64,000 nt of DNA from Candidatus Micrarchaeota archaeon (GCA_043821365.1 JBDRCX010000006.1:416001-480000), one strand, 5' to 3'; positions 14,079 through 47,200 are shown, numbered from the stretch's first letter. The notes: generated from the letters alone by a model not told the origin. A program made the numbers and translations.

Positions 14079-14206
14079 TGTGGGGCAAGCTCCACATCCT
14101 CTATTTTTATATATTTAATTCTGTGAGATTCAAATTAATTCATCAATTACTTTTATGTCTGTTGCTTTACCCTATTCAATGGGGTTCGAGGGGGCACCCC
14201 TCGAAC
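14079..14206. terminator. Two hairpins between convergent genes
   Basis: TGTGGGGC-AA-GCTCCACA (14079-14096) and GTTCGAGGGG-GCA-CCCCTCGAAC (14184-14206), with T-rich runs on the minus strand. Confidence 0.55.
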
Positions 14207-14221
14207 AAACAAAATAAAAAA

Positions 14222-17200
14222 CTAGAATGTTGCTTTAAGCTCCAATGTACCACTGATGTCTAATTGTTCAGTTGTTACTGGGCCAACCTCTTGCAATACT
14301 CTATCTACATTGAAGTTTAATTGGAGGTATGGATCTATCCATGTGCCCCAAAATCCTCTTTTTGAAATTATTACACTGGTACCCACTCCAGTACGCATTT
14401 CACTGCCAGTTGTTAACCATTGCTGATATTGTCTACCTAATAAATCTGCTCTTACTTGTGTTGTTGCATCGGTAAACATTGCTCCTCCTCTTAACTCTAA
14501 TTGATATGCTTGTGCATCAATTGCTTCATCTTCCTGGTACATCCCAGTTATCCACCCATATATGTTTCCAAGTTGCATTCCTCTTTGCGGGTCAAGTGGA
14601 AATGTGTAAAATAATGGTATCCCTGCTTCCAACTGCCAAGTTCCACTTTGTGCAGTTGAAATCTCACCAGTTGGGCTTACTTGGATTGATGGGTCTGAAT
14701 ACATATCTTCACTCCCTGAAAATAATATACCCATTATTAATCTCCTGTCAAGTGTAAGTGGTATTCTAAAACCAAGGTGGGCACCATATGCTACTCTATC
14801 TAAATATCCACCACCAAATACAGTGTCAACTGGAGGAGCAAATACTTTTACTTCGCCCAAACCTGGGAAATAACCGTCTACTTTCAAACGTACTTGGTCA
14901 TTTGCTATCCAGTCTGTTGAAGCTCCAATTATAGGTAATGTGATGTGTTCTCCGCCAGAATCAAGCGGATCTCCGCCTACTTTCTTGTGAACAACTGCTG
15001 CAGTAAGTCTCATCTTTGTAAATGTTGATCCCATCGGTGTCCAATCATATTGTACAAACCCTCCCCCTTCATTCGGAGTGAAATCCCAAAGTGCACCAAC
15101 TTCAAGTCCATGTTGTGCAGCCAACCATCTTCTAAATCCTGCTGCAATAAGTATTTGTTCACCCACTGGCGTACTTACTACTTCCTGGTCTGTTAATTCT
15201 GGATGTTGTGCATCAATTGCATCATCTAATGCAGGATTTGAAGAGTCTTCTATACCCAAATTACCCAACGGTGTGGTTCCGGCTAATCCTTGTTGAACGC
15301 TATATTTTCTATATAATCCAGATGCAACAAATCCACCAAGCATGTCACTTTGTATTCCGTATAATCTTCCACCACTTAAGTCATCGACAAATTGATTTGT
15401 TGGATCTCCACTTCTTCTTATTAATCGTCCACCACCTATACCAACATGTCCATATCCAAGAACAGGTTCTCTAAGTGCATGATTTACAATTGCCACACCT
15501 TGAAGATCATTTGCAGCCATATCTTCTTCTCTGTCACTGAAACCAACAAATGCTTTTATTTCTGTTCTACTAACTTTTATGTACTGGCCTTCTAAATAAA
15601 TTTTATTTCCTGCTTGAGGATCACCATATTTGAAACCATCCCCCGAGATTCTTCCAATCCACAATGATTGGTCTTCAGGTCTGAAATTTCCAAAAGCAGC
15701 TGCACCTCTTCGTCCTCTTGTTTCTTCATAATCAACATAACCCCCCCAACCTGCTTTTTGGAATGCAGCTCCAGCACCTTGGAACTGTTCCCATTCGGTT
15801 TCTGGTTCACCTGTGAATGGGCCAGAGAATAAGAATGCACCGTCAAGTTGTGCTATGACATCTCCTTCTTGCACTCTTCCTCCTGTATATAATCTTTGCA
15901 TCGGTCTTTCTATTGTCTGCCAGTATAATGATTCGGCAGTTTCTTTAGGCAAAGTTACTGTGTCTATTTCCACAAAGCTTCCATTTGCAAATCTTTGGAA
16001 TAAGTGAGCTGTAAGTGCAACATCACCTGGAACTACTGTTCCATCTGTACCAACAGTGTCTCTTGCCTGTGTTCTTTTGAAATAAATTAATGTGTCAGCT
16101 CCTGCAGGTGCCATACCTGAGAAATAGGTACCAACTGCTGATACTCTTGGGTCAGTTCCTGTTCCTGCTTCTTCACCCTGTGCTACTACTGGTGGCTCTT
16201 CTATAACTTGTATGTCTCCAGTAAATGTGTTGATATTATACGGTGTACTACCTTCAGGTGCGATCCTCAATTGTTGCAATTCCAAATACCCGACATGCTT
16301 TTTCTCTCCAGACACTACTCCTTCAGTATCAGTTGCAGTTTGCGCAGTTATTTCATATCTTTGTTTTGCAGTTGTTACTTGTCCTTCTCTTGTAAACTCT
16401 TCAGTAAATTCTACGCTTCCCTGCTGTGTTTCTGATGATTGTCTTCCTGCATCGCCAAGATCAGTTTCAACTCTATGCATCTCATACTCAGTTGTGCTCG
16501 CTATTCGCATTCCAATTAATTCTCCAACATCTGGGAATTGGTCTGGTGCAAGGAAACCAAGATTATTCATTAAAAGTGGCAATCGTGTCCATGGGAATGG
16601 GATTGTAGTACGTACATTTACCATTGATTCATCAAAAAAGACACCCATTGTTCTGAACAAATCTGCTGAAGCTGCTGGATCATCGACTATTCTTGGGGCC
16701 TGAGTTATAGTAAGGCCATATTTCTGTGTCCATGTTTCATATATTCTTTTTGGTACTCTTATTATCATCTGTGCAGCTGGTATCATCACTTCGCCGTAAT
16801 CTGCTTCTGGCGGCATTCGTATTCTGACATCTTTTGTCGGCTCTCTACGATCAGATTGCATTGCAGTTATATCTGGGAATAATTTCTCGAGTTTTTTTGG
16901 CAGGTCCTCATAATATGCTTGTAGTAATCTGTAGTGATCCCCAACAATAAACATTTGGCTGTACTGAGTTATTGCTTTTGTTATGGCGATTATTGATGCT
17001 TCATCATATCTTTCAAGAAGAGTATCAGTTGTTTTTGCATAAGCAAGTGCTGCATATCCTGCTGGAAGCCCGCTATATCCCACTATCAATGAACATACTC
17101 TAGCCATCTCTTCTGGGTTTCCAAATTGCGTACTTAGGTCTTTGTATTTACTTTGCAATGCTTGATATAATGCATATTTACTTTGTAATGGTAATCCTGC

Positions 17201-19096
17201 AAAAGTTTGTATTGCAGTTTGTGCAGTTGCAATTCTTGAACTCTGCATATATCTTTCTCCTTCTGTTGCTGCTGGCTGTGCAGTTAAATTGCTTAGATGT
17301 ACTCCCAATGTATCTGTGAATGTTTGGCTAAATGTAAGGAATTTAGGATCGCCTGCAATCGTTTCATACATTCTAACCATATCTGCCACTGGGTCATCAC
17401 TTTGAATAGCAATATACTGTCTCATAAATCTGACTGCCACGCTCTTTTTCAATGCTTGCCATTCATCACTTCCACGTGTTAATCCGCTGAATGCAGCAAG
17501 ACTGTCAGTTATTGCTTCAACTTGGGTTGTTAGAAGTATGTTTAATTGAGTTACTCGTTGTGCACGCAAATCAGCAGTACTTGTACCTGCAGCATCCTGT
17601 GCTCCAAGTGTTCTTAGGTCAGTATCCAATGTTTCAATAGCTGCAGGAACTGCTGTATTTGCCTGTCTTGTTGTCTCAAGAAGAGCATGCAATTTGTCTC
17701 TATCGATATTATGTTTTCTCATAAATGTTTTTGCAAAGACCCCAATTCTGGAATCCAATGCATAACTATCAACTTGACTAAGGTAACTTTCTAATCGTGG
17801 TATGAATATTCTCGCTCCAATCACTTCATAGAAACTTCCAGTACCTGCTATCAAATTGTTTATTCTTCTTGCTCTTATTGCAGTTACTTTTTCTATTTGT
17901 TCAAGTTCGTCTTCAGTTGGTATTTGGCTATTCAATATATCTAATTTTTTCTGGTTAGGACTTGCCTGAAGTTCGTCTCTCCATGTTTTAATATGTGCTG
18001 CAAGCATTTCTTCTGGTGTTGTTGCACCTGCTGCTGGCAATGTGATGCCTTTTTCCCGTAAGAATTCTTCAATATCGCTTACACGCGTTAAAAGATCATC
18101 AACAGTTATTACTTTCTTTGGAACAAGGCTAAGCATATATGCACTAGTTGCTGTTGTCAAACCAGTCCCATGTATTCTTGCAAGTGTTGTCATATCTGTT
18201 TGTGAAACTTGAAGCTGAGCCATAACTGGAAGTAAGTGTTCATTAAACAATTCGCCAACTTGTTCTGGAGTTAAATTTTCAACAGTGGTTTTTTTATCTG
18301 TTGCATAGCCAGTAAGTATGGCTGCTATTTTTGGATCTTGTGTATTTACTGCAGCAAAAAATTCCTTCATATACTCTGCAGGAAACACTCCCCCATTTCC
18401 AGTAACATCTGCATTTATTCTTCTCCATAAATCAACTGCTATTTCTTTTCTTGCTTCTCTTTCTCTTGCTCTTATAAGTCCAACAAAAAGGCTTGCATTT
18501 GTCTGTGCAGAAGCAAGTGTTTCTGGAGAACTTCCAATCAGATCTCCTCTTCCGGCAAGATTAACAATAGGTACAACAACATTGTCAAACATCGTTTCGT
18601 TGTACTCACTTTGCAATGCTTGTATCCCTGGGCGTCCTGCTTTTATCGCAGTATGAATTTTATCAAATATTACTATAAGTTGATCAAGATCTATTGTTCC
18701 TGTTATCTCACCAACTGATCTTATTATTGGTCCAGTTGGTTCTGGTCTTAATTGTGTTAAAAATTCCTGTCTAAGTAATTCAAGAAATGCAGGAGATCTG
18801 TCTTGTAAAATTTCTAAGACCCGTGCTTTTTTAGCAGGATCTCCTGTTAACATAAATTGTTTGAATGTAGTGATACCTTCTTCTGCCTTTCTTTTCAGTG
18901 CCGCTTCAGGCGGGGCGCGCCTTCTTTCTGCCATAGCAGTATTAACTCCAAAGTTGTTTATATTTATTCCGTTAAAGAAAGTAAAAGTTCCAAGTGCTAT
19001 TGCTGCAGCGAATTTTCCAAAAACAGCACGTTTTCTTCTTAATGAAGGTTCTCTTACCTCCCTCTGGTCTTCTCGAAATAATCTTGGCCCACCCAT
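14222..19096 (-). CDS. Giant protein (1624 aa): signal-like N-terminus, helical middle, beta-strand-rich C-terminal region ending in Phe
   Basis: RRKR + AAAIALGTFTFF + TAMA; C-terminal amphipathic strands ending ...ISGTLELKATF. Confidence 0.85.
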   Translation of the reverse strand: MGGPRLFREDQREVREPSLRRKRAVFGKFAAAIALGTFTFFNGININNFGVNTAMAERRRAPPEAALKRKAEEGITTFKQFMLTGDPAKKARVLEILQDRSPAFLELLRQEFLTQLRPEPTGPIIRSVGEITGTIDLDQLIVIFDKIHTAIKAGRPGIQALQSEYNETMFDNVVVPIVNLAGRGDLIGSSPETLASAQTNASLFVGLIRAREREARKEIAVDLWRRINADVTGNGGVFPAEYMKEFFAAVNTQDPKIAAILTGYATDKKTTVENLTPEQVGELFNEHLLPVMAQLQVSQTDMTTLARIHGTGLTTATSAYMLSLVPKKVITVDDLLTRVSDIEEFLREKGITLPAAGATTPEEMLAAHIKTWRDELQASPNQKKLDILNSQIPTEDELEQIEKVTAIRARRINNLIAGTGSFYEVIGARIFIPRLESYLSQVDSYALDSRIGVFAKTFMRKHNIDRDKLHALLETTRQANTAVPAAIETLDTDLRTLGAQDAAGTSTADLRAQRVTQLNILLTTQVEAITDSLAAFSGLTRGSDEWQALKKSVAVRFMRQYIAIQSDDPVADMVRMYETIAGDPKFLTFSQTFTDTLGVHLSNLTAQPAATEGERYMQSSRIATAQTAIQTFAGLPLQSKYALYQALQSKYKDLSTQFGNPEEMARVCSLIVGYSGLPAGYAALAYAKTTDTLLERYDEASIIAITKAITQYSQMFIVGDHYRLLQAYYEDLPKKLEKLFPDITAMQSDRREPTKDVRIRMPPEADYGEVMIPAAQMIIRVPKRIYETWTQKYGLTITQAPRIVDDPAASADLFRTMGVFFDESMVNVRTTIPFPWTRLPLLMNNLGFLAPDQFPDVGELIGMRIASTTEYEMHRVETDLGDAGRQSSETQQGSVEFTEEFTREGQVTTAKQRYEITAQTATDTEGVVSGEKKHVGYLELQQLRIAPEGSTPYNINTFTGDIQVIEEPPVVAQGEEAGTGTDPRVSAVGTYFSGMAPAGADTLIYFKRTQARDTVGTDGTVVPGDVALTAHLFQRFANGSFVEIDTVTLPKETAESLYWQTIERPMQRLYTGGRVQEGDVIAQLDGAFLFSGPFTGEPETEWEQFQGAGAAFQKAGWGGYVDYEETRGRRGAAAFGNFRPEDQSLWIGRISGDGFKYGDPQAGNKIYLEGQYIKVSRTEIKAFVGFSDREEDMAANDLQGVAIVNHALREPVLGYGHVGIGGGRLIRRSGDPTNQFVDDLSGGRLYGIQSDMLGGFVASGLYRKYSVQQGLAGTTPLGNLGIEDSSNPALDDAIDAQHPELTDQEVVSTPVGEQILIAAGFRRWLAAQHGLEVGALWDFTPNEGGGFVQYDWTPMGSTFTKMRLTAAVVHKKVGGDPLDSGGEHITLPIIGASTDWIANDQVRLKVDGYFPGLGEVKVFAPPVDTVFGGGYLDRVAYGAHLGFRIPLTLDRRLIMGILFSGSEDMYSDPSIQVSPTGEISTAQSGTWQLEAGIPLFYTFPLDPQRGMQLGNIYGWITGMYQEDEAIDAQAYQLELRGGAMFTDATTQVRADLLGRQYQQWLTTGSEMRTGVGTSVIISKRGFWGTWIDPYLQLNFNVDRVLQEVGPVTTEQLDISGTLELKATF

Positions 19097-19210
19097 TTGT
19101 TATCCTCTCTGATCCCCTTATAATTATCTGTGGGCAAAAGGATTAAAAGGTGTGTCACAACCTGAGGCTAATCATGTTCCTAGGATCTGAACCTCCTAAT
19201 CTAACAAAAA

Positions 19211-21409
19211 TCAAAAACCATCAATCAAAATTCGTGGAGGTTTCTCAGCTCTAATCCCTATGCTTTCTCCCCATTTTCCAATGTCTTCATTTGGATTTGT
19301 TTCTCTCCATCTATAAAGTGCCATTGCACTTAAAGTTAAAGTAAGATTTTGAGGATCAACTCTTATTTTCTGTGCATTACCAAGCCCAAGTTTTTCTTGT
19401 AATTTGGCGATATCTCCTCCAAGTCTGGTGCTGCCACCAACTCTTTCATTTAAAAATTCCTGAACTGCTTTTGCATATACTCTTAATGTTCTGCTATTTG
19501 TTTCATCTGTCATCTGTGTAATTTCTCCTCGTTTAGTGAAACTTCTATATTTTACTAACATAAATCTTTTGAATTCAGGATCTGCACAAAGTTCGTTGAA
19601 AGAACCTGCAAATGCTTTTTTATTATCTTGTGCAGATACAGTCTCTCTCATTTCAATTATTCTTGCAGGATTTCTTGCTGTAATTGCAGCTATCATCTCA
19701 TCTGCTTTTGTTTGCACTGGTTCTTCCATTCTTTCTAGTGGAATTTCTATTCTTGGTCTTCTATCTGCTATTCCAAATGCAACTTGTGCTATTTGTCTTG
19801 CTATTTCTTCTTTTCCTGCTTTGTTTGGGTGTAAATGGTCTCCTGAATCAAATTCAGGTTTTAATCTTCTTCCCTGAGCAAGAATTGAAAGATCAATAAC
19901 AGTTACTCCATCCTCTCTTTTGGCCAAAAGCCATTTGTTATATTCATCTGTTTTTTGTTGATTTCTTTGCGACCATGTTCCATAACCTTCCCATGGTGTA
20001 ACAGTAAGAAGTACTACTCTCAGTCCTGCGCCTTTTGCCATTGCTATCATTTCATCAATGTTTCCTTGTATTTCGTTTAGTGGCCTACCACCAGCAATAT
20101 CATTTACTACCCCACCCTGTATGACGACTGTGTATCCCTTGTCTATTATGTCTCTTTTAAATCTTCTTTTCATTTGATAAGTTCCTTCTCCGGAATGCGC
20201 AGTTGTTTCAACTACTGCATCAGAAGTTTGCGATCGTAATAATTTTTGTAGTTCTTTACCAAGTATTCCATCTGCTGCAGATGAACTTCCTATTATGCCA
20301 ACATAAACTGCTGGTCTTCTTGGTGATGGTTGTGCTTCTTCGATGGCAACTGGTGTTCTCCAGATTGGTATATCATCTGATCTTTTTGCTCTTCCACTTG
20401 TTGGGTGAGTGAGGTACCATCTTCTCATATGCAGTTGTGCAGCCATTATAGTATCACTATCAATTGGTCTTTCCATTGCTGTTTTTCTTGCCAGCGGTCT
20501 TGCTTCTATTATTGCTCTTACCTTTTCCAATTGGGTTATCTCTTGTCTATAGTTCTGATCCATCCCACCGAAATTTGTCAAGTAATATCTAATATACAAA
20601 TCAGCAGCTTGCAATATTTTTGCATCTGTTCTTTTGTCTATTCTTTTTCCAGATTCAATATGTTGTAATAAATTCCCAAGCTCTGGGTGAGTCTCTGCTT
20701 CCTGTGCTGCTGCAGTTGTCAAATAAAGTTCAAATGCAGGTATTTTTCTCAATTCACTAAAAAGTGCTACAGTTATTTCTTTTTGCGCTGTTGTTCTTGC
20801 TGTTCCTCTTTGTCCTTTTGCCAAGACTTTGTCAATAGCTGTTCTGTTTGTAAATAAAGTAGTTGTTGCTGTTTCTCTATCTGATGAAGTTATTTGTTTT
20901 AATATAAATCTTTGATTGATTGTTGGGCCTCTTATTCTAGTTCGTGAACTTGCTGTTCTCACAGGTTCAGCTCGCCTTTCTGGTTCTGTTCTAGTTGGCT
21001 GGGCGTCTTCTATAACTGGTTCTATTCTTACAGGTGGTTTGTCCCGTACCTCTGGTTCTACTCTAGGTACTGAACGTTCCTCGATAGGTGGGGTAAATAC
21101 TCTTGGTTCTACTCTTACTGGCTTATCTTCTGGTACTACAACTGGCTCTGTTCTCACAGGTTCAGCTACTTTTATTTGTGCTTTAAGTTGTTGTGCTAAT
21201 GTTGTTGTTGCTCTTATTGCAACTATTTCTGATTTTTTATCAGAGTCACTTGAATATGCTTTGAAAGCCTCTCCTAATACTCTGCTTATTTTTGCTTTTA
21301 CTGCATCATCGCTTTCTTCCCTAGTTATTCTTGTTGATGATGTGTAAACTGTACCATCAGAAAATTTTATTATTATGGCATTAGTCCCATTCAATCTAGC
21401 TGTTGCCAT
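19211..21409 (-). CDS. 732-aa protein with Pro/Glu/Arg-rich linker and SGNH/GDSL hydrolase domain
   Basis: IIGSSSA (block I), HSGEG (II), GGVVND (III), DHLHP (V). Confidence 0.8.
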   Translation of the reverse strand: MATARLNGTNAIIIKFSDGTVYTSSTRITREESDDAVKAKISRVLGEAFKAYSSDSDKKSEIVAIRATTTLAQQLKAQIKVAEPVRTEPVVVPEDKPVRVEPRVFTPPIEERSVPRVEPEVRDKPPVRIEPVIEDAQPTRTEPERRAEPVRTASSRTRIRGPTINQRFILKQITSSDRETATTTLFTNRTAIDKVLAKGQRGTARTTAQKEITVALFSELRKIPAFELYLTTAAAQEAETHPELGNLLQHIESGKRIDKRTDAKILQAADLYIRYYLTNFGGMDQNYRQEITQLEKVRAIIEARPLARKTAMERPIDSDTIMAAQLHMRRWYLTHPTSGRAKRSDDIPIWRTPVAIEEAQPSPRRPAVYVGIIGSSSAADGILGKELQKLLRSQTSDAVVETTAHSGEGTYQMKRRFKRDIIDKGYTVVIQGGVVNDIAGGRPLNEIQGNIDEMIAMAKGAGLRVVLLTVTPWEGYGTWSQRNQQKTDEYNKWLLAKREDGVTVIDLSILAQGRRLKPEFDSGDHLHPNKAGKEEIARQIAQVAFGIADRRPRIEIPLERMEEPVQTKADEMIAAITARNPARIIEMRETVSAQDNKKAFAGSFNELCADPEFKRFMLVKYRSFTKRGEITQMTDETNSRTLRVYAKAVQEFLNERVGGSTRLGGDIAKLQEKLGLGNAQKIRVDPQNLTLTLSAMALYRWRETNPNEDIGKWGESIGIRAEKPPRILIDGF

Positions 21410-21413
21410 CTTA

Positions 21414-27400: not shown

Positions 27401-30400
27401 TAATATCTGAAAGTGTTTCATGTCCAAATGCTGATGCCATCATTTCAGCGTCAGAATCAATACTAACGGTTACAAAAATATCTGTTTCAGTTCCATATCT
27501 TTTCATTGCACTGATTCTCAGGTTTATTCCGTTGCTATATGCTAGCATTGCTCTTTCTCCATCTCCTATTACTATGAGGTCTAGTGCTTTTTGTAATTCA
27601 GCTTCACTTCTATCAAGGAGTCCTCTGGTTTCATATGTTGCTCCTTCAAACAAATCATCAAGAGGGCCTGAAGTTTGTGCAGCCATTGATCGGTATGCAG
27701 GACTAATCTTCAATTCGCCATTCACAGTTGCATAAGCAGTAACTAATCTCTCTTCTTTTCTAAAATCTGCCATGAGTGTGCGATAGTCTTCTAAGAGGCT
27801 TTCTTCAACTCCTCCTCGGTGTCTTACCTGCTCTATTCTTGCTACTAATTCTGCTCTTCTTCTTTCTAATACAAGTAATCTATCTCTAACTTGAGTTGGT
27901 ATAGTTGGTTCTACAGTTTGCGTTACTGTTTCTGCAGGTTTTATGAGTGTTGGTTTACCTACGGTTCTCCATCCACCGCCTGGCATATCAACTGTATCTA
28001 CGCTACTGTAGTCATATCTTGCAGGACTCACAACATCCTGCCTTCTCATCACTTGCCCATCTTGCCATACATAACCATGCACTTTTTTCACATGGGTTGG
28101 TGGTTCATCATACATTCCATAAACAGTTGAAGTTGCGACTTGTAATGCATCTAGTGATTCAACAAGTTGGTCATACGTTTGTGATCTTGATGTTGCTTGT
28201 ACCACTCTTCCAAATCTCAGATTGTATGCAGTTACTGCGGTGTTAAAACCCTCAATATTTCCCTGTCTTGCAGCTACTTCGATATCTCTTAAAATATCCT
28301 TCAATGGTCTTCCTGCTTCCAATAAAGGATCTCTTGGTTCTGCTCCCTCTCTTGTATCATATGCTCTTAGATCTGCCATATCCAAGTAAACTTTCTTTCC
28401 TGCTTGGTCTTCCCCAATTAAAATTTTTCCTGCAGCAGTTTGTTCATTTACGGCCCTCTCCCCTCTATAAACACCTAATATCTCTTGATATCCCTGCATA
28501 AGATTGTGGGTGTTTTCAACTAAAATAATTCCTTCAATAAGTTTATCTGCAGCAGTTCTGTGTTGTGTTGCAGTTATTGATATTGTTTCTAATCTAATTG
28601 CTTCAAGCATTTTTGCTCTACCGCTAACAATACCCGGAACTGTGCTTCTTGCAAAAATATCATATCTTCCGCCTTCTTTTCTTGCTTCTACTGCAGGCGT
28701 ATCTCCTTCTGCAGGAATTGCACGTATCTCAATTCCATAAAAATCAGCTACCTGTGACAAAAGTATTTTTGCACCTTCAAAATCTTTTCTTTCTGCTCTT
28801 TTTCTTGCAGTTTGAATTGCGAATGTTATATCTTCTCTTCCAAATTCTCTTGTTGATGCCAATCCTTCTAATCTTACGGATTCTCTTTGTATGTTTAGGC
28901 TGTATGCTCTATTGAAACTGTCCATAAAAACAGCTTCAATCTCAGTCCCATCAACTTGTTCTTCACCTGCAACAATGGCACCAAGTGCTCGTTCCATTCC
29001 ACGAACAACTGAAACATCTGATCTTGCTAATGAATGTATTTGTCCTCCTCTCCTTGTTGCAATTACCTCTACACCATCAATGTACATTGTAAGTAGCATA
29101 AGAACTTTTGCAGCTTGTTCTGCTTTTCCTTCTCTTGCAAGTCTCTCACCCTGAGCCAAACTGTCTCGAATAACTTTTCGTTGCATTACCATGCCAGACC
29201 CCCAGTCTGACAATAGTTCATTCAAGCGTCCAGAATCAACTTTGAAACTATGGTAAACTAAACTTGCATTGAATTCTTGTAATGCATTTCCACCACCAAT
29301 TTCAATAGCAAGAGCTGCTTCCATTTCTTTTGATCCATCCCATCTTCTGCCATTTGTTTGGATCATATCAATGTAAGTCTTAACCATGCTAAGCAATCTA
29401 CGTGCTCCAAGTGGGTCTGTTTCAAGTCTTTCTAATATTTTTTGTGCAGCTTCTCTTATTCTATCATTTTGTTCTCCTCTTTTTTCTGGTGGATAATCTG
29501 CAACTAATCGATCTGTTTCTGCTTTGATATTTCCAAATTGCAATTCTGCTGTCATTCTAGCAAGCATACCGGGGCTAGGTGTTCTCTTATTTCTTATGAT
29601 GTCCATCACTTCGCCATATGAGGTTGGAAGATATTCTCTAAGTCTGTCAAGTGATGTTTTATCCAACTGACCAACCATTATACAAAGTGCTGCAAGTGTT
29701 CTGTTATTATCATCAATTGCTCTTAGTGCCTGGAGACCAAACCATGCCGGAGTTCCTTCTTCTATTCTACTTTCACGTCCTGTTCCTCTTAGTACCTGCG
29801 CACTTTGTCTTAGAATTTCAATTCTCTCTCGGCCCATTGGCACATCAGTTCTTCCAGAAAGTGCAAAATAACCAGCAGTTAATCTGTTTATCTCATCATA
29901 GGTTGCAAGTGCTGTTGGATGTCTTGTTAATCTTTTTGTAAGTTCTTGTGTTTCATCTCTCCATCTATAATACTGATCCATTGCAGCAGCTGCACTTGCC
30001 TCTCTCATCTCTCTTGCTGGCACTAAAGATGCCACCATTCCTTCCAAATATACAAGTGTTTTCTCTCTCACCTGTCTCCTAATGTCAGCAAAATTATGTT
30101 CAAATTGTGCAAGTGTTCTTGTATCCTCTTGCTGTTGTTGTGCAGTATACTCTTCTCTTGCTTGTAATTGTGCCGCTTTGCTGGTTACGAATACAGTTGC
30201 GCTTCTAAATTCTTCAGCAGTTGCACTGTCATCAAAAATAAATATATCAAAATTTTGAGTAACTAATACAAATCCTTTCAATGTAGCTCTTGCTAACAAA
30301 TCCTGTTCTCCCCCAAGTTCAAGAATAGCAAGTTCAGCTGAATCTTGCAACATGGTAAATGTTTGTTCTGGTCCACTTGGCCCAATAAAATAGGTGTCTG

Positions 30401-30818
30401 GCAATCCAGCTTGTATTATTTTTGAACTACGTACAAACACATCTCCAAGCATCTGCAACTGTTCTTGTGCTACTGTTAATTGTCTCCATGCTTTTTCAAT
30501 ATCTCCTTCTCTTTTTGCCTGTTGTATGAATGCCCTAATGTGATCTATTTCATTGTCAAATCGTTCTCTGAATATTGGAACTGATTCAAGTTTCATTTTT
30601 TCAAGTATGCCTAGCAATCGCTTTGCTTCTCTGTCTATTTGGGCTGCTCTTGTTGGTACTGGCCTGCTTGAAATAGTTGCAGAATATTCTCGCAATTCTC
30701 TAATTGCAGTTTGTGTTTCTTGAAGTGCTCTATCTAAGCTTTGTAATTCTGTTCTATCATAACTTTTACGTGGTATAATTCCACTTCTATGTCGGGGATC
30801 TTCGGTTCTTTGTGCCAT
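21414..30818 (-). CDS. Giant protein (3134 aa): helical/coiled-coil rod with Gly-rich hydrophobic helices and C-terminal repeat module
   Basis: 9.4 kb uninterrupted ORF with AAGGTGAT RBS. Hydrophobic cluster at ~26600-27045 and a TM-like helix at ~23685-23765. Confidence 0.9.
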   Translation of the reverse strand: MAQRTEDPRHRSGIIPRKSYDRTELQSLDRALQETQTAIRELREYSATISSRPVPTRAAQIDREAKRLLGILEKMKLESVPIFRERFDNEIDHIRAFIQQAKREGDIEKAWRQLTVAQEQLQMLGDVFVRSSKIIQAGLPDTYFIGPSGPEQTFTMLQDSAELAILELGGEQDLLARATLKGFVLVTQNFDIFIFDDSATAEEFRSATVFVTSKAAQLQAREEYTAQQQQEDTRTLAQFEHNFADIRRQVREKTLVYLEGMVASLVPAREMREASAAAAMDQYYRWRDETQELTKRLTRHPTALATYDEINRLTAGYFALSGRTDVPMGRERIEILRQSAQVLRGTGRESRIEEGTPAWFGLQALRAIDDNNRTLAALCIMVGQLDKTSLDRLREYLPTSYGEVMDIIRNKRTPSPGMLARMTAELQFGNIKAETDRLVADYPPEKRGEQNDRIREAAQKILERLETDPLGARRLLSMVKTYIDMIQTNGRRWDGSKEMEAALAIEIGGGNALQEFNASLVYHSFKVDSGRLNELLSDWGSGMVMQRKVIRDSLAQGERLAREGKAEQAAKVLMLLTMYIDGVEVIATRRGGQIHSLARSDVSVVRGMERALGAIVAGEEQVDGTEIEAVFMDSFNRAYSLNIQRESVRLEGLASTREFGREDITFAIQTARKRAERKDFEGAKILLSQVADFYGIEIRAIPAEGDTPAVEARKEGGRYDIFARSTVPGIVSGRAKMLEAIRLETISITATQHRTAADKLIEGIILVENTHNLMQGYQEILGVYRGERAVNEQTAAGKILIGEDQAGKKVYLDMADLRAYDTREGAEPRDPLLEAGRPLKDILRDIEVAARQGNIEGFNTAVTAYNLRFGRVVQATSRSQTYDQLVESLDALQVATSTVYGMYDEPPTHVKKVHGYVWQDGQVMRRQDVVSPARYDYSSVDTVDMPGGGWRTVGKPTLIKPAETVTQTVEPTIPTQVRDRLLVLERRRAELVARIEQVRHRGGVEESLLEDYRTLMADFRKEERLVTAYATVNGELKISPAYRSMAAQTSGPLDDLFEGATYETRGLLDRSEAELQKALDLIVIGDGERAMLAYSNGINLRISAMKRYGTETDIFVTVSIDSDAEMMASAFGHETLSDIINDRRREIVAGRDDQYVKYLLIHKQALREILFGDETPGRTDRIKMHGKRLEAARMIDIAMFSIPARNTSQSIANQDYAGRQDQVREACLSAAGAYRTGQSDLGEQKLAEAKVIVEQMEKWSGIIGFAGNAAYTVVALGVTVLQPEIGIPMILAQQADHAYTEYHVEGAVSATSWAMMGLTVVTVGLGSWVGSLGRGAVEAERLGQLATATRMLGRARAITMANVGIGIGMTGYMGYESYRAWQSGQYKEAVFTGMVALFPWAHMGGARYRAARVRSAETARAKAVDLEAVVEELAPAIERPAIEIEPTRVPEAARVAELRSPAKLLEFLRAYTRADPIVKESMMARIPEHARTVLGDLARNPAMTEALRAPDTSVTFLQAEEAMRAAIRGFERPPPTTPGPRNTGPLYEAANWLATRGVTLRDFVGDLVHGEALATARLEQIRSQNPEVARIVDRLVSNDFVRLSYDRGLNPASEAAFRKALTDLEAVVPKEILQVEVQAMEVYELQVVGGEPIQMMGRPPTMGERGAPIEGVTRTQIRASTDPPGGGGPVDGGGQVRPPTGGRSRLNVPGRVLDSYRGYREGRSARAVEAEVRAREGVTAPQDFATEASMGLERILDTARPSAERVTMDITDAQAVELANLRVVELFRTLYERSTSRDVPSALRTELARIMQKMYARENVRNVLREAAEGNVDIQRAIRSSEGTAAETIRRTGTTLEEHYRRLGVREEGKLFTETETGLILDTLEAPVIRMVEQARAAEASAQRTRVEVEGQIETLRPKLARAETSPRESYLRGADKAVETAIEQHGALTAERESYGEIEVLRTELRGLDATNPRAAELTNQIARIEALDASLGYIQERLGTVVDEIAFLRETNLQRTSPRELLRTTQRIGESLQRIQRELGSVHEDLGTLGSQGIDVAPLGTARTAWDKAIRKPLKTLEGYNTRLEGAERTIYEATQQIQDARNQPLVATEGMLATRFGETAKAEMFARLLTEGKMREPIIEGEARGLQYYTERTIADLSADSQAAQVAQQRVLERVARGGNADEILLGVLKSEPVMEALGRKEAAYREALSDAKLDLALEEWNSKNPRQQRTKVEQAIEEIRGIDSELADFATEVRGFSDNFNALGKYAEALTNYRSNPEVAVPEYGSAGVDAWHWAKGRVPTGLISALDYILPVRGWGRGGRLGPLRRRGMAIREDAIRSGELVEGSKRAWGTALVVAQFGLWAADVALMEYWWGRKITGDPEQGPIEWTYGTISECLFQTKSITEGRRLIKEKFDVDISEDNAKAIIKDPNVRMFVDMLPYIYPKGDERRPQNLEEAMQREGGYIHPAMVDRVLDDVREMSGQIDDINDYVTRINGNDDPDRKYEGKLRAIIEPWGISYDQLIGRARIKKRDTGIDLEMMDLVDLRKTGDWVDKGYAFTFGSAIVSSFLYDCGVTDHQREFEVFTQNADVYDVLWTLMKSGKVPYGNAQMAASMLAGTGVIERLRLKAEIDEKKLSVVVEEFLSLNEMASGGKKPPRDVTQASFLLSLSTSATAEGAFSDKVHMFLNQDRDAFVALWNLVHNGSLPVVYSRDAIIELSKPGVIAGIRTGLQGEQTLEEGMYVFLREKGWVLEIPEEQEGQTRGLSHNAILGYLDREAMTRNPALETTVREILTLYKGDPDALRALDSLTLDANEAVYGDLTEFATWIVTKTRERKQLFDGTPERERGKLPPFNLKAEAQREGWILRASYGDIDPQILEHRDLLTFAQKNPLIMTWIEGKRDIGYGINLVAVLRYLELNKSSLPTEQQALTTYLDSLMGQFESRKLMRANERVPRTPEAARRHRAQQSGQKPSQQVRDEEELRRHYPKWATLTPVRTAAPRTDVSTVSDQELTGFMDSMEGLKIAQDIEASTERQKADPDIAALIQRYKAPGVSDADALAHATREITREIYAEILRAKTVSQDKQLYERGGIKLTFAEGGQLTITLDEDKSPAFLGSRIKAAARRAGQRAE

Positions 30819-30850
30819 TATATCACCTTGTAAGAATTATTTTTCCAAAG

Positions 30851-30931
30851 GAAAAAATGTTTGTGCATTTTTACACCGTCGAAAATTTCTTTGAAATTTT
30901 TGAAAAGTAAAAATGTCCTCATTTTTACACC
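30851..30931. promoter_or_regulatory. Palindromes and 12-bp direct repeat upstream of the 3134-aa gene
   Basis: GTAAAAATG-TCCT-CATTTTTAC (30907-30928); CATTTTTACACC at 30866-30877 and 30920-30931. Confidence 0.45.
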
Positions 30932-31252
30932 TTAGGAATACATTTTACAAATAAATACAAAATCCCGCAATCTTCGTGTGCGGGTTTCGTCATCAACGTT
31001 TTTTGTTTCAGTTACGTTTTTTTGCCATGATTCTAATGCATGACAAAATCTTCTTATCCTAACAACGTGGGGGTACATTGCATCAGGTTTTGTTTTTGAT
31101 GCATCCCACTTTGTGAGAAAATATTCAAGAGTAGAAATAGTTTTTTCAACACGTCTAATTGTTTCCTGTTCAACAGATGTAACGTCTGTTTTCTTTGGTA
31201 TACTAACAACCTTTTTTGGTTTAGCCTTAATGGCAGTTTTTTTCTTCGCCAT
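30932..31252 (-). CDS. Small basic helical hypothetical protein (~106 aa)
   Basis: GGGTG RBS before MAKKK; TTTATAAA TATA-like box upstream. Confidence 0.7.
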   Translation of the reverse strand: MAKKKTAIKAKPKKVVSIPKKTDVTSVEQETIRRVEKTISTLEYFLTKWDASKTKPDAMYPHVVRIRRFCHALESWQKNVTETKNVDDETRTRRLRDFVFICKMYS

Positions 31253-31361
31253 GATACGCACCCGCAATTAAATTATACCTCTGGTTATTTATAAATCTGC
31301 CTACCGTCTGATGGATGCGAATCAGGCTAAGTTGTTATTTAAAAATTAGAAAAATAAAGAA

Positions 31362-34300
31362 TTAGTTTGTTTGTTTTACAAATCTCAAAACTTCACGACC
31401 AAGTATTATTGGTGCTTTGTCATCATCTACTTGTACTTCCAAACCACTTTCAGTTGTTGTCACTGTTAATCCATTTGCTTTTAAGTAAGCACTTTGTGTT
31501 GAGTTTGTTGTTGCCCTTGTAAGTCTTGTAAACCAGTCTGCTCTGATTGCCTGCATGAATTGCTCCTTATCGCCGCCATACTTCGAAACAAGAACTTCCT
31601 GTACCGTTGCACCGTTTGGTCCAGATGCATCAAAGAGTTTTTGGACTGCTTCATCTAATCTTGCACCAAATATGCTGTTCTGGAAAAATGTTTGGCCTTC
31701 TGCGCTAAGTACTTCAGTAGTCACCACACTCTGAGCAGTCGGTTCGCTTATTTGTACTATTAACCCAGTTCCTTTTGCCCATTCCACTCTTGATCCTTGT
31801 GGATATCCAAATGGATCGTAATCGCCTAACTGCCCTCCGTCTCTTTTATGTTGAACTAACAATTGAACAAATTCATCTGATCTTTCAACATTAAGTCTGT
31901 ATGGTGATGCAGTTTGTTTGAATCCTAGGAGGAATTCTTTTACATCAGTTTGTACTACACAAACATCCAATGAAGCTTCGTGGAGTCCTAATCCACTAAG
32001 TTCTTTTTCAACTGTGTGCCTTTGGAATTCAACTGTGGTATTTCTTACCCAATCTGCTTGGGTACCCCGTAGTGTCTGTGTCATTGCTTCATCAAATATA
32101 TCTTGTGGAACTTCTTCCATCACAGGATTTATTACAACTGCAGGTGTTCTTGCACCTGCAACTCTTACGATGTTGTCTCTTAGCATACTAAGGAAACTGT
32201 CTCTATGTTCTTCTTCAACATGGTATTTAGCTTCCCCAACTTTACCCATAGCAAGTCTTATTTCTGATGTTTGTTTTCCTTGAGACAATAAAAATTGTAC
32301 ATTGTTAAGATCAGTCACTCTGCTTGTTTCCATTATCTGGAATTCAAGTTCACTTATCAAGAATCCTTCTCTCACCCAACGTGCTCTGTTTACTTGATCA
32401 TTCAAATATTCATAGCTTATTGTTTTGCCATCTTGTTCTTCTGCCATTAATCTTGCAACAAATTGGTCTGATCTACCAGTGTTCAATCGTAATCCATCAC
32501 TTATTGCATTATAATCAAGTTCAATTGTACAACAAACTTGCATACCTGGTTTCCATTTATCTGCTTCAACTGGCTGATATGCTTCTACATCCTCAACTGT
32601 TTTTATCCCGAGTTTGCCACAACTTGCAGGAAGTGGAGTTGCACTTGTGCTGCAATTCACTGGTCTTTCGTCAAGTTTCTTTACTTCAGCAACAACTTTC
32701 ATTGTTTTACGTTCTTGCATGAATGTCAAAACATCTTGATTTGTTGCAAGCCATCTTAATCTTGCTTCAACTCCAGTGCTATCTGCTTCGCCCTGAAGTG
32801 TTTTTCCAATTCCATATGCTCTTTTGTAATATTCTGAACCTCTTTCTGTTAATCTACCTGGAATATCATAACTGTCATGTATAACCCTTCTAATTTCTTT
32901 TTCTGTTGCCAATGGCAATCCCCAAGTCCATGGTCTGTACCAATCTTTGCTTTGAGTATAAACAGGACCTCCAAATGCCTGCACAATTGGTGCTGGCCAG
33001 GTTAATGGGTTAAGTAATTTTACTTCTTGTGCTCCAAGAGTAAAACTTAATGCACCAGTAGCCAATATACCCTTTACTACTAATCCAGCAACTCCTCTTG
33101 ACCATCTTGGCCATACTGTTGGGTAATATGATCCTTGTCCTTGATCTGTATAATCTCTTGCCATCACTTTTCCTTTTGGATTTTCAGTAAGATGTTCTAA
33201 TTCAGTTCCAAAACTATGGTTCCACAACCATCTTCCTTTTGCTCTCCATCCTCTTCCGCTTATTGTATGATAGGCAAGTTTATGTTTGAACTTTGCCCAA
33301 CCACCTTCTCCTCTTGCTGGAATGCTATCTATATCTGATGCAGCTTCCCAGACTCTTACTGCTTCCAAACGCTGTGCATCTGATAAACCAACTATTGTTT
33401 CGTAATTTCTTCTTTCCATTCTCTCAACAACAAGCAAAGCAGCCCGTCTTAATGGGAATGCGTGGTTGTTTTTTGTTTCAGTTAGTTGAGCATCTATAAA
33501 TTCTCGAGTAATATCAAAATTTCTTAATGCAGTAGCCATTCTTCTGAATCTTGTTCTTGTTGCTTCTGGCAGATTTGTACGATCCACCTCTCTTTCAAAA
33601 GCATCTAGTTTTCCATTGAATTCATCCACCCTATCCTGCAACAAAGGTGCATAATCTACTCGTACTGGGGTAGGTGCGATAGGTTGGCCTTGAATTTGTT
33701 GTTGTGGTGCAGGTGTTCTCAAATATTGTACCATCTCTTCTCTTTCAGTTAGAAGTTCCTGTACTCTATCAAGATGCGCAGTAACTGCAACATTTGGTAA
33801 TCGTTCTGCTATTCTATCTGCAACCCCTCTAAGGTCAGCACCACTTTCGCGGTGTTCTATAAGTAAAGCACGAAAATGATCAATTAACTGTCTTGAAACC
33901 GCATCTGTGCTTCCTTCCAAACTAAATCTTCTCAATTCAGCTTGTGCTTCTCTTAGTTCACCCTCTGCCATTTGTAATTGTTCTCTTGCCACTGTTTCAT
34001 CAGCACTTGCTTCTCTTAGTTCTGTTATGTGGTGGTGAATATGATCATCCCTTATTCTTGCAGTACCATTAATTTGTGCTTGGAGATCTGAATATCTTTG
34101 CCTTGCCTCATTCAATTCTCTTCTAGATTCTCGTTTTTCTTGTTCAGTACTACGTTCATTTCCTTGGATTTGAGAATCCCTTCTTTCTGTCTGTTGCAAT
34201 TCTCTTCTTACAGTATCAACATAATCACCAATTTCTCTTTCAGCAGTTTCTCTTCGTTCTGCTGCCATTCTTATTGTGTCGCCTAGGTCTCCTATGACTT

Positions 34301-35186
34301 CATGTAGTGTTCGAACTGCCAAACTTCTTTCTTCTAGTCCTCTATCTGCGTGTTCACTATATCCAAAACCAGGCATGTTCAATGTTGGGTTATTTGCATT
34401 TGTTGGTGTACTAAGAATATCATTTACCAATGTGCCAAAATCATTAACAGCTCTTTCAAGTGGTTCAGCTGATCTTCTGTATAAATAGGTTGCTGCATAT
34501 GAAGGATCCAAAATACTTCCTCCTGCTCTTTCTTTTGAATCAGTAAATGTTTTTCTTGTTGAAAATTCCTTTAGCACCATTCCTATAAATTCCCCTTCTC
34601 TCCCAGGATGTTTATGTTGTGCAACACTTTCCAAAAATCTCAGAAATGCTTCTGACGGATTTGTCTGTCCTTCTGGCCATCCATCCCATATTTGTGGGCA
34701 TCTTACCATTGTTGAATGTAAAATATCTAGATCAAGTGTGGTCAGATTCCCTATCATATGCCTTCTATTACTTCTTGCAATGTTCAATTGTGCTGCTAAT
34801 TCTACTCTTCTTCTCTGTACATCAATTGCATGGGTACTATCACTTTCTTCCAGAGGAGTTCTTACTGCTCCATGTTCTATTGCCTGTACAAATTGTTCAC
34901 TACAAATAATTTCTCTGATTAACATGTCAAGTGTTCCAGTTACATCTCTTCTGCTTTGTCCCCTTCTAATTGCTTCTACAAATGCTTTGTTAAAACTAGA
35001 ACTATGATCTCCACTTGCTGTTCTTGCGTCTGGTGTTTCTCCTGCTCTCTGCCTTGCTCTTTCAATTGCTTCAGTTTCCTCTGCTCTCTGCCTTAATTTT
35101 CTCTGTCTCTTTGCTTCTGTTGGTATCAATGGAACGTAACTCTTTACCCCTTCCCATCCTCTACTTGCTAATGTACTTCCAGCCAT
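31362..35186 (-). CDS. Large protein (~1274 aa): coiled coil, TM helix, internal repeats, C-terminal module shared with the 3134-aa protein
   Basis: Start moved to MAGSTL after AGGTGGG RBS; TM GVAGLVVKGILATGALSFTLG. Confidence 0.88.
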   Translation of the reverse strand: MAGSTLASRGWEGVKSYVPLIPTEAKRQRKLRQRAEETEAIERARQRAGETPDARTASGDHSSSFNKAFVEAIRRGQSRRDVTGTLDMLIREIICSEQFVQAIEHGAVRTPLEESDSTHAIDVQRRRVELAAQLNIARSNRRHMIGNLTTLDLDILHSTMVRCPQIWDGWPEGQTNPSEAFLRFLESVAQHKHPGREGEFIGMVLKEFSTRKTFTDSKERAGGSILDPSYAATYLYRRSAEPLERAVNDFGTLVNDILSTPTNANNPTLNMPGFGYSEHADRGLEERSLAVRTLHEVIGDLGDTIRMAAERRETAEREIGDYVDTVRRELQQTERRDSQIQGNERSTEQEKRESRRELNEARQRYSDLQAQINGTARIRDDHIHHHITELREASADETVAREQLQMAEGELREAQAELRRFSLEGSTDAVSRQLIDHFRALLIEHRESGADLRGVADRIAERLPNVAVTAHLDRVQELLTEREEMVQYLRTPAPQQQIQGQPIAPTPVRVDYAPLLQDRVDEFNGKLDAFEREVDRTNLPEATRTRFRRMATALRNFDITREFIDAQLTETKNNHAFPLRRAALLVVERMERRNYETIVGLSDAQRLEAVRVWEAASDIDSIPARGEGGWAKFKHKLAYHTISGRGWRAKGRWLWNHSFGTELEHLTENPKGKVMARDYTDQGQGSYYPTVWPRWSRGVAGLVVKGILATGALSFTLGAQEVKLLNPLTWPAPIVQAFGGPVYTQSKDWYRPWTWGLPLATEKEIRRVIHDSYDIPGRLTERGSEYYKRAYGIGKTLQGEADSTGVEARLRWLATNQDVLTFMQERKTMKVVAEVKKLDERPVNCSTSATPLPASCGKLGIKTVEDVEAYQPVEADKWKPGMQVCCTIELDYNAISDGLRLNTGRSDQFVARLMAEEQDGKTISYEYLNDQVNRARWVREGFLISELEFQIMETSRVTDLNNVQFLLSQGKQTSEIRLAMGKVGEAKYHVEEEHRDSFLSMLRDNIVRVAGARTPAVVINPVMEEVPQDIFDEAMTQTLRGTQADWVRNTTVEFQRHTVEKELSGLGLHEASLDVCVVQTDVKEFLLGFKQTASPYRLNVERSDEFVQLLVQHKRDGGQLGDYDPFGYPQGSRVEWAKGTGLIVQISEPTAQSVVTTEVLSAEGQTFFQNSIFGARLDEAVQKLFDASGPNGATVQEVLVSKYGGDKEQFMQAIRADWFTRLTRATTNSTQSAYLKANGLTVTTTESGLEVQVDDDKAPIILGREVLRFVKQTN

Positions 35187-35309
35187 AATCCCACCTACTT
35201 CTAATAATTTTTCTATCGTTATTGTGTCTAATAGTGTTTTTAAAAGTATCACTGTGTTTATGGAGGTTGTGCTTTAGATAATATATTATACATATGCCAC
35301 ATGATAAAA

Positions 35310-46564: not shown

Positions 46565-47200
46565 ATGCATGCCAATAAAGAGCAGCTTGCAGAAATCGTG
46601 GGCATATTCCTAGGTGATGGTAGTATCTATGCTAACAAACAGCACGGTATTGTTCAAATTGTGATCACTGGCCATTTACAACACGATTTCGAATATTTGG
46701 TCCATTATGTTAAACCAATGTTGGAAAAGAATCTATCTGCAAAATTTAAAATAAAACGGCACCGTTTGAATGCAATCCAAATCTATAACCAAACTAAAAG
46801 TACTGCTTCAAAACTTAATGAACTTGGCATCCCAACTGGAAATAAAGTCGTCAATAACATTCAAATTCCTTCTTGGATTTTTGGTTCCAAAAAATACCTA
46901 AGAGCATGCATAAGAGGCTTAATTGATACTGATGGTTCAGTATGTCCAATCACTGGCAGGAATTACCCTTATATATGGTTTAAGTGTAGAATTCCAAAAC
47001 TAAGAAAATCTTTTTCAAAGGCCTTGGAGCTGTTAAATTATAAAATTGCCAAATGGTCTATTAGGCCAGATGGGGTTGGTCAGACGTATATCGGTCAAAA
47101 ATCACTTATCCATAGATATTATAAAGAAATCGGCTCTAGAAATACCTACCATATGCATAGACTTAGTTCGCTCCGTTCGTCTAGACCGGTCAAACACTAA
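46565..47200 (+). CDS. Free-standing two-motif LAGLIDADG (DOD/intein-type) endonuclease-like protein
   Basis: LAEIVGIFLGDGS and CIRGLIDTDGS; no intein splicing motifs. The 3' end overlaps tRNA-Glu. Confidence 0.88.
   Translation: MHANKEQLAEIVGIFLGDGSIYANKQHGIVQIVITGHLQHDFEYLVHYVKPMLEKNLSAKFKIKRHRLNAIQIYNQTKSTASKLNELGIPTGNKVVNNIQIPSWIFGSKKYLRACIRGLIDTDGSVCPITGRNYPYIWFKCRIPKLRKSFSKALELLNYKIAKWSIRPDGVGQTYIGQKSLIHRYYKEIGSRNTYHMHRLSSLRSSRPVKH

Follow-up and report, generated by a model that had tools for sequence, protein, structure and literature searches.

A syntenic block of giant-protein genes downstream of ftsY and its SecB-fold neighbour: a candidate envelope or host-contact apparatus of Bilamarchaeaceae (Micrarchaeota)

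The stretch analysed here, referred to as the window, comprises 64,000 nucleotides (nt) of a Candidatus Micrarchaeota archaeon (GCA_043821365.1, JBDRCX010000006.1:416001-480000). It contains a block of five minus-strand open reading frames (ORFs), named P5, P4, P3, P2 and P1 in their order of transcription, which according to ORF calling in the window encode proteins of 1274, 106, 3134, 732 and 1624 amino acids (aa), and a sixth gene, P0013 (13645-14067, plus strand), which belongs to the block. The block is a candidate lineage-specific envelope or host-contact apparatus of six genes, a reading to which a little less than an even chance is given, and it matches no described system. The initial annotation had reported five co-oriented genes directly after an operon running from S19e to ftsY, and the ORFs, their strand, their sizes and their neighbours are all confirmed. 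A chance origin of the ORFs is ruled out because they extend over 1.3-9.4 kb in DNA of 36-40% guanine and cytosine (GC), and in related genomes an intact orthologue exists for each of the five.

Synteny was studied in 20-36 kb around relatives of the block in eleven genomes of the genus, in which ORFs were called; the identity of the upstream gene as FtsY was confirmed in the source genome (G000) only. The order P5-P4-P3-P2-last gene is kept in each of the eight genomes whose locus is not truncated (G024, G015, G022, G002, G014, G010, G050 and G005), and another genus of the family (G227) has four of the genes, P4, a P3-like gene (3373 aa), a P2-like gene (737 aa) and a P1-like gene, in the same order. 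Across the orthologous loci, the P5-like proteins measure 1253-1360 aa, the P4-like 102-124 aa, the P3-like 2825-3186 aa and the P2-like 717-893 aa, and the last gene occurs in two versions, a short, P1-like type of 1575-1807 aa and a long type of ~2800-2874 aa whose likeness to P1 ends after the signal peptide and the first ~360 aa (hhalign probability 99.3%). Conservation is highest for P4, at 42-75% identity, and the giants diverge to 25-30%; orthologues of P5 in eight genomes are 26-56% identical. What emerges is a syntenic and lineage-specific block; the outcome that the initial annotation had named as speaking against its reading, a lack of synteny in every relative or a known, unrelated family for each gene, did not come about. 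Some local rearrangements were seen as well: in one genome (G050, L027/L028, C2) two P3-like genes of 2825 and 2898 aa stand in tandem, and in another (G014, L023, C35) three inserted plus-strand ORFs separate the P2-like gene from the last one.

The distribution of the genes follows the lineage. Of 24 genomes of the genus, 19 have a relative of P1, and relatives of P3 were found in 28 of 39 and P4 in 29 of 30; a profile of the barrel region detects relatives in 11 of the 23 genera of the family, and no P1 relative was found in 16 genomes from other families of the order. Gene order and distribution thus taken together indicate that the block is vertically inherited and specific to the family Bilamarchaeaceae. 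The closest relatives of P4 and P1 carry the name Candidatus (Ca.) Bilamarchaeum dharawalense, and we infer that the source genome, 1.2 Mb in six contigs and 87% complete, belongs to the genus of this organism (Micrarchaeota/Microcaldota, order Anstonellales). The genus has been described from groundwater, in a report that does not mention these genes (PMC8561730). DNA of the P1 gene occurs in groundwater and biofilm metagenomes from two studies, and no RNA datasets are listed for it.

P1 is predicted to be an exported protein. Judged by eye, all members of the P1 family inspected carry the features of a Sec signal peptide, that is, a basic n-region, an h-region and an AMA motif, and the motif NINNxGxNxAMA is conserved in short and long members alike. 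The C-terminal region (residues 860-1624) was modelled with AlphaFold2 from an alignment of nine sequences. The 50 best matches of this model in Foldseek and the 50 best in VIA are all outer-membrane-type barrels, nearly all of them bacterial, two being entries of mitochondrial Tom40. The best match in VIA is chitoporin (7vtz; Z 16.1, 276 aligned residues, root-mean-square deviation (rmsd) 6.0), followed among others by SprA (Z 15.9), and Deinococcus SlpA is matched by Foldseek with an E of 1e-6; MtrB, TonB-dependent receptors, ushers and LptD are also among the structural matches. Searched by shape, the ESM Atlas returned MtrB/PioB, BBP2 and TonB-dependent receptors; searched by sequence features, it gave P1 a value of 0.87, to be taken as a lead only, and the tail of the long type 0.90-0.92 with the same barrel class. 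The last ~12 strands of the model have one hydrophobic and one polar face, and in 10 of the 12 complete members of the family the terminal residue is Phe, Trp or Tyr, preceded by a strand of alternating hydrophobic and polar residues. The predicted signal peptide and a modelled tail that matches only outer-membrane-type barrels bear out the initial description of an exported protein with a beta-rich end resembling outer-membrane proteins (OMPs), and the model assigns the tail, with moderate confidence, to the outer-membrane-type barrel fold class.

At the level of sequence, the P1 family stands by itself. When 1.84 billion representative proteins were searched exhaustively with a profile, the only matches were 29 proteins of the P1 family, each either full-length or a fragment within the P1 size range, and no bacterial porin family was among them; a word-indexed search of 5.8 billion proteins gave four matches each for P4 and for the P1 tail. 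P1 has no match to an OMP family in Pfam or NCBIfam, and the Pfam scan found neither an Omp85/POTRA part nor an SLH domain in it. By these searches the P1 family is new, and its membership in any bacterial OMP family is not supported. A recent transfer of the barrel from bacteria was considered and rejected, there being no bacterial sequence relative in the exhaustive search. Two other proteins of the source genome may be mentioned beside P1. One (C2:190423-191106, minus strand, locus L069:923-1606) is a small candidate barrel of 228 aa with a signal peptide, amphipathic strand-like segments and the end Ser-Lys-Thr-Phe, which has no Pfam match and occurs in 4 of 50 genomes of the family. The other (C6:331131-334400, plus strand, L034) is an orphan of 1089 aa with a P1-like opening motif and a hydrophobic leader, 3.4% Lys, no Pfam match and a C-terminus that is not aromatic.

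The sixth gene, P0013, lies convergent to P1. The AlphaFold2 model of the 140-aa protein, which has a predicted local distance difference test score (pLDDT) of 85.1 and a predicted template modelling score of 0.74, consists of four long strands and two helices, and its 18 best Foldseek matches are all SecB or the SecB-like Rv1957. In VIA its first matches reach Z 10.9 (rmsd 2.5 A over 118 residues) and 9.7, followed by one uncharacterised protein at Z 8.4 and the rest at 5.7 or below. By sequence, the P0013 family matches neither the Pfam SecB model PF02556 nor any other Pfam family nor any entry of the Protein Data Bank (PDB), and a literature search for SecB-like proteins in archaea found no paper on it. 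Of 401 Micrarchaeia genomes, 384 have the family, as do 185 of the 186 of good quality, usually as one copy and in Bilamarchaeaceae as two to four; the housekeeping paralogue of P0013 in the source genome lies at C6:376086-376460 (plus strand, locus L035). In every genome inspected a P0013-like gene adjoins the last gene of the block, and in one of them (G018, L029, C10) two P1-like genes stand in tandem, each duplicated together with a SecB-like gene of its own. An extra copy beside a P1-like gene is also found in other genera (G323, G158, G321, G166, G154 and G295) and on two independent metagenome contigs. From these counts and positions, P0013 is an additional copy, specific to the lineage, of a gene that almost all of the Micrarchaeia searched possess, and the basic role of the family would therefore be broader than the block. 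In bacteria, SecB keeps the precursors of outer-membrane proteins unfolded for export, and these proteins are its classic clients. Fold and linkage suggest that P0013 may be an export chaperone of P1. It resembles SecB and Rv1957 of the HigBA toxin-antitoxin-chaperone system of Mycobacterium tuberculosis (1fx3, 1qyn, 5jtl and 5mtw) in its fold (template modelling (TM) scores 0.5-0.58) and in being encoded beside a large protein that must cross a membrane unfolded, and differs from them in having no SecA partner and in escaping detection by the Pfam SecB model and by PDB sequences.

P3 and P5 are giant helical proteins that have neither a signal peptide, nor an N-terminal hydrophobic leader, a TPS domain or a Pfam family. 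They had been described at the outset as two paralogous proteins, each with a rod and a transmembrane helix and with a common C-terminal module. The module stands: the last ~125 aa of both are homologous (hhalign probability 96.4%, E 1e-9), in several species the likeness between the copies is obvious, and its hidden Markov model matches only the P3 and P5 families in the source genome. The rest of the claim is weakened, since demonstrable homology is limited to these ~125 aa and the helices of P5 and of P3's C-terminal part are of only moderate hydrophobicity. The 19-residue hydropathy maximum of the P5 helix is 1.3-1.75 across seven orthologues, that of a marginal membrane segment, and the rod and transmembrane reading is insecure because this helix holds a conserved Lys and the later P3 helix is weakly hydrophobic. 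The central cluster of Gly-rich helices in P3 is present also in a 4444-aa paralogue encoded elsewhere in the genome (BLAST E 4e-4). In profile-profile comparisons of P5 or P3 with P2, P1 and the long type of the last gene, nothing beyond the C-terminal module was found; the module was not found in the P1 family as a whole, with an isolated match in one member (G018). For P1, P3, P4 and P5, no significant match came from Pfam, NCBIfam, PHROGs or PADLOC; Tox-REase-7, GAS2, Rad50 and LmuB matched below cut-off. The ESM Atlas gave no usable match with P5.

The composition of the giants is unusual as well. P1, P3 and P5 contain 3.4-3.7% Lys and 6-10% Arg, compared with genome medians of 8.5% and 3.9%, and the 4444-aa paralogue is also poor in Lys and rich in Arg; in the surface proteins of the source genome that carry signal peptides Lys is lower still (0.9-1.8%), and P4 and the SecB-like protein are Lys-rich (13-14%). 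The GC content of the block, 0.39-0.40 as against 0.34-0.37 in its flanks, is higher because of this Lys-to-Arg amino-acid usage.

P2 is composed of a conserved N-terminal motif resembling a beta-hairpin, a linker rich in Pro, Glu, Val and Arg, a helical region, an SGNH domain and a helical tail, and has no signal peptide. The SGNH esterase named in the initial annotation is well founded, as PF13472 is matched above its cut-off and none of the eight orthologues lacks the catalytic Ser of block I or the catalytic His of block V. The Asn of block III is present in five of the eight (a sixth has an Asn that is offset in the alignment) and the Asp of block V in seven. The nearest solved relatives are GDSL-like acylhydrolases of Bacteroides, whose substrate is not known.

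The small protein P4 connects the block with other loci. A paralogue of 104 aa (37% identity) lies directly upstream of the 4444-aa gene, and a P4 profile detects as many as ten copies in a genome; matches occur in 29 of the 30 genomes from the genus and in 40 of the 80 from the family, and outside the family there are one clear match (G086) and three borderline ones. In all 23 further loci the gene next downstream of the P4-like gene, on the same strand, is its partner; the partners are giants of 1043 to >4500 aa with several N-terminal classes, or members of a family of 366-450 aa. From this constant position, P4 has the look of a small adaptor or chaperone that serves the N-terminal domain of the protein encoded next. 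Co-folding of P4 (alignment A2) with residues 1-260 of P3 (alignment A3) gave a score of 0.78, compared with 0.62 for a control with an unrelated chain 1, and so speaks neither for nor against binding. By these gene neighbourhoods, the P4 family ties the block to a wider set of genes for giants and proteins with toxin domains. A small helical protein encoded upstream of a large, variable one, with many such pairs per genome, recalls the LXG toxins and Lap proteins of type VII secretion and the Eag chaperones of type VI secretion; P4 differs in having no sequence or family link to them, and no type VI or VII machinery is present.

Several individual P4 loci have features of their own. Tandem pairs of a P4-like gene and a 366-450-aa partner, repeated two or three times, occur at L049 (G023:C20:1-12000), L054 and L068, and one of these partners has a weak match to an SprT-like protease (E 8e-5, below cut-off). 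A 1665-aa partner in G360 (L055:8868-13862, minus strand) carries a C-terminal HicA_toxin domain (PF07927, E 1.6e-6, above cut-off). In the source genome, outside the window (C6:529001-549000, L032), the P4 paralogue is followed by the 4444-aa protein, which has a Metallophos domain, and by ORFs of 178 and 302 aa; the 302-aa ORF, two ORFs past the giant's gene, is 44% identical to the C-terminus of the giant, and by analogy the layout resembles that of a toxin with an orphan cassette.

Under the favoured reading, in which the six genes encode an envelope or host-contact apparatus, P1 would be exported through Sec by means of its predicted signal peptide and kept export-competent by P0013, a dedicated paralogue of the SecB-fold chaperone of the lineage. 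Beyond an ~800-aa helical region, its C-terminal part would fold into an amphipathic beta-barrel, porin-like or larger. P3 and P5, which have no signal peptide, would be anchored by their Gly-rich or moderately hydrophobic helices, with the 125-aa C-terminal module as a common docking or sorting element; P2 would provide acyl-esterase activity, and P4 would be the small partner for the N-terminal domain of the giant encoded next. Jointly, the parts would connect the cytoplasmic membrane with the outermost layer or with the host cell, and might act as a conduit for contact, penetration or feeding.

A number of observations weigh against this reading. No interaction among the six proteins has been demonstrated, and the hydrophobic helices of the giants are, as said, marginal. 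To our knowledge, archaea are without SecA, with which SecB works in bacteria, and proteins of the SecB fold have roles in toxin-antitoxin systems too; on both grounds, the fold of P0013 is no proof by itself of a role in export. In the source genome, the SecA_DEAD model finds a single open frame of 502 aa, presumably a helicase, and it matches in all four archaeal controls as well; without SecA, an export mechanism involving P0013 would have to differ from the bacterial one. The model of the P1 tail has a mean pLDDT of 56.8 from an alignment of only nine sequences, its TM-scores to real barrels are low (0.2-0.4), and its first five strands are polar on both faces. No match to Omp85/BamA (PF01103) at E<=1 was found in the source genome, of the completeness given above, in a search to which the controls responded, and apart from the one small candidate the genome has no clear further barrel protein. 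The genome also encodes a canonical archaeal S-layer protein (PF05124, S_layer_C, E 4e-14), which led to the rejection of P1 as the main S-layer protein, and cryo-electron tomography (cryo-ET) of the cultivated micrarchaeon ARM-1 displays an S-layer over one membrane (PMC11329633). Thin sections of ARM-1 in transmission electron microscopy have been read as an inner and an outer membrane (PMC8784108), and the cryo-ET study reports an unexplained, 21-nm, barrel-like docking structure in the envelope (PMC11329633). Because no Omp85 was found, an S-layer gene is present and the images of ARM-1 conflict, three placements of the barrel are kept: the cell's own outer layer, the membrane of a host, or no membrane at all. 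The most specific version of the favoured reading, in which Bilamarchaeaceae possess a lipid-embedded outer-membrane-type barrel, served by the SecB-fold chaperone, independent of BamA and linked to the cytoplasm by P3 and P5, that forms a contact pore in their own second membrane or that of the host, is quite improbable. The initial suggestion of a bacterial host is not upheld, as the known Micrarchaeota hosts named in the ARM-1 studies are archaea (PMC8784108, PMC11329633) and the barrel has no bacterial sequence relative.

The same S-layer gene, the single membrane in the tomograms of ARM-1, the missing Omp85, the low confidence and TM-scores of the model and the polar upstream strands are what would be expected if the block encoded a surface coat or adhesin, with the P1 tail as a soluble or S-layer-embedded sheet or pore on an envelope of one membrane and an S-layer. 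This account is nevertheless unlikely, since the last ~12 strands, where the model is best, are amphipathic and turn their hydrophobic face outwards, the aromatic terminal residue is found across both types of the family, and all structural neighbours of the tail are membrane barrels, none a soluble sheet. About equally unlikely is effector delivery, in which P3, P5 and perhaps P2 would be giant secreted or injected cargo, after the model of polymorphic toxins or of the giant substrates of type 1 or two-partner secretion, P4 their adaptor or chaperone, the module an export signal and P1 the outer conduit. The multicopy P4-like genes, always placed before a partner that varies from 366 to >4500 aa, the HicA_toxin, Metallophos and weak SprT-like matches among these partners, the cassette-like 302-aa ORF, the common C-terminal module of two giants that have no signal peptide, and a low Lys content, as in the surface proteins of the genome, all speak for delivery; yet the C-terminus of P3 is conserved among orthologues and not polymorphic, no immunity-like or small gene follows P3 or P5, the block contains no ATPase or ABC exporter, P1 lacks POTRA and Omp85 parts, and the locus is a fixed, housekeeping one.

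Less probable still is an internal scaffold, in which P3 and P5 would form a cytoplasmic frame tied to the membrane, comparable to the high-molecular-weight (HMW) proteins of the attachment organelle of Mycoplasma, and P1 alone would be extracellular. The lack of signal peptides in P3, P5 and P2 and the length, helicity and marginal hydrophobic segments of the giants agree with it, but their Lys-poor composition is nearer that of exported than of cytoplasmic proteins, the Gly-rich hydrophobic cluster is conserved, and no sequence or domain link with any cytoskeletal family was seen. The reading of the block as a mobile element, be it an integrated virus, a plasmid or another island, is extremely improbable, although the block has a slightly higher GC content and consists of giant orphan genes: its order and downstream neighbours recur across species at protein divergence down to 25-30% identity, the GC shift is explained by amino-acid usage, and no tRNA or repeat boundary was seen. 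No integrase, transposase, capsid or terminase was matched in family scans of the block, in agreement with the initial annotation, which had seen no integrase, transposase or phage genes; the only PHROG match is a lipase. A prophage or island was rejected on these grounds, namely the absence of integrase, capsid and terminase and the conservation of order and neighbours across species.

Among described systems, the closest in architecture to P1 are Deinococcus SlpA (8agd, 7zgx and 8ae1), the best Foldseek match of its tail (E 1e-6), and the OmpM tethers (8bym), of which OmpM1 of diderm Firmicutes was also matched; in each, an export signal, a long helical stalk and a C-terminal barrel are combined in one chain. 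P1 differs in lacking an SLH domain, in showing no sequence similarity (7-12% identity) and only low TM-scores (0.15-0.2 to SlpA, <=0.34 to OmpM1), and in coming from an archaeon without peptidoglycan or BamA, and the neighbouring giants have no counterpart there. Two-partner secretion and contact-dependent inhibition systems (TpsB/CdiB with TpsA/CdiA) likewise have a barrel gene beside giants of ~3000 aa, and paralogous giants elsewhere in the source genome show toxin-type domains and the cassette-like ORF; but in the present block P1 has no Omp85/POTRA part, P3 and P5 have neither a signal peptide nor a TPS domain, the P3 C-terminus is conserved and there is no immunity gene; from polymorphic toxins in general, the block differs in that the C-terminal module of P3 and P5 is conserved across species. 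Giant surface proteins known from DPANN archaea (Nanohaloarchaeota), SPEARE among them, are also specific to lineages of host-dependent archaea and have been proposed to act in host contact. Proteins of the SPEARE type combine recognisable protease, adhesion and nuclease domains within one protein, whereas the block described here consists of several genes, with an SGNH domain as the only recognisable one, a barrel-like tail and a SecB-like partner.

Two questions that have so far been without candidate genes are how DPANN archaea attach to and take up resources from other cells, and what makes up the disputed outer layer of Micrarchaeota. For both, the block provides concrete candidates, namely P1 with its predicted export and barrel-like tail, the chaperone paralogue next to it, the two giants that share a C-terminal module, the esterase and the small P4 family, which accompanies giants and toxin-domain proteins across these genomes. 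If the barrel is real and located in a membrane, P1 would be the first such protein in Archaea, assembled without BamA; if there is no membrane barrel, the block would still be an undescribed, lineage-specific surface system of a widespread groundwater symbiont. New in this work are the family-wide synteny, the chaperone as an extra copy, the bound of 29 members for the P1 family, the module of P3 and P5 and the P4 partner family. The coordinates of the genes and their parts are collected in Table 1.

Table 1. Genes of the block, their predicted parts and adjacent features (positions in the window)
Feature	Position	Strand	Description
P5	31362-35186	-	1274-aa helical protein, first gene after ftsY; Lys-poor, Arg-rich
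P5 moderately hydrophobic helix	33030-33104	-	residues ~717-741 of the 1296-aa frame; conserved Lys in mid-helix
P5 C-terminal module	31365-31736	-	~125 aa, common with P3
P4	30932-31252	-	106-aa Lys-rich helical protein; public record begins at MAKKK
P3	21414-30818	-	3134-aa giant helical protein
P3 N-terminal region	29559-30818	-	~420 aa, conserved among P3-like giants after a P4-like gene
P3 central cluster	26604-27056	-	~four Gly-rich hydrophobic helices, residues ~1255-1405; conserved in orthologues
P3 second helix	23691-23765	-	weakly hydrophobic, aromatic, residues ~2352-2376, after a Trp/Arg-rich stretch; hydropathy maximum 0.8-1.5
P3 C-terminal module	21423-21806	-	~125 aa, common with P5
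P2	19211-21409	-	732-aa protein with SGNH domain
P2 SGNH/GDSL hydrolase domain	19775-20317	-	PF13472, E 1e-17, 65.5 bits (cut-off 32.9)
P1	14222-19096	-	1624-aa exported protein (signal peptide read from sequence)
P1 signal peptide	18929-19096	-	basic n-region, 16-aa h-region, NINNxGxNxAMA, to residue 56; by eye from sequence
P1 Ala/Leu-rich region	16520-18928	-	residues 57-859, probably helical; first ~360 aa common to the long type
P1 Gly/aromatic beta-rich region	14225-16519	-	residues 860-1624; 36 predicted strands
P1 last ~265 aa	14225-15022	-	pLDDT 77-91; long amphipathic antiparallel strands, terminal Phe
Inverted repeat and T-run	14185-14205	.	GC-rich, by eye; in the 154-nt gap between convergent P1 and P0013
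P0013	13645-14067	+	140-aa protein, SecB-like fold, convergent to P1

Along the five-gene block the gaps measure 123, 109, 113, 4 and 114 nt, of which only the 4-nt gap between P3 and P2 looks coupled; the remaining gaps contain, by eye, TATA-like and Shine-Dalgarno-like motifs. The ATG of P5 at 35186 gives the 1274-aa protein, with the frame open to a GTG at 35252, and the public record begins at residue 23. The inverted repeat between P1 and P0013 looks like a two-way terminator. On the 5' side of the block, family scans identify S19e, a dsDNA-binding protein, L31e, eIF6, prefoldin and FtsY, and on its 3' side the 140-aa P0013 gene is followed by genes for aTrm56, a bPH_2 protein and phosphoglucomutase (PGM); this downstream order, from the SecB-like gene through Trm56 and bPH_2 to PGM, is found in the source genome and in one metagenome contig.

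Two RNA genes elsewhere in the window may be added. Rfam matches a tRNA over 138 nt at 47170-47307 (plus strand), where ARAGORN reports none in the window, and this is probably an intron-containing archaeal tRNA. The signal recognition particle (SRP) RNA at 48967-49221 (minus strand) fits the bacterial large SRP model best (76 bits), in a genome that is archaeal.

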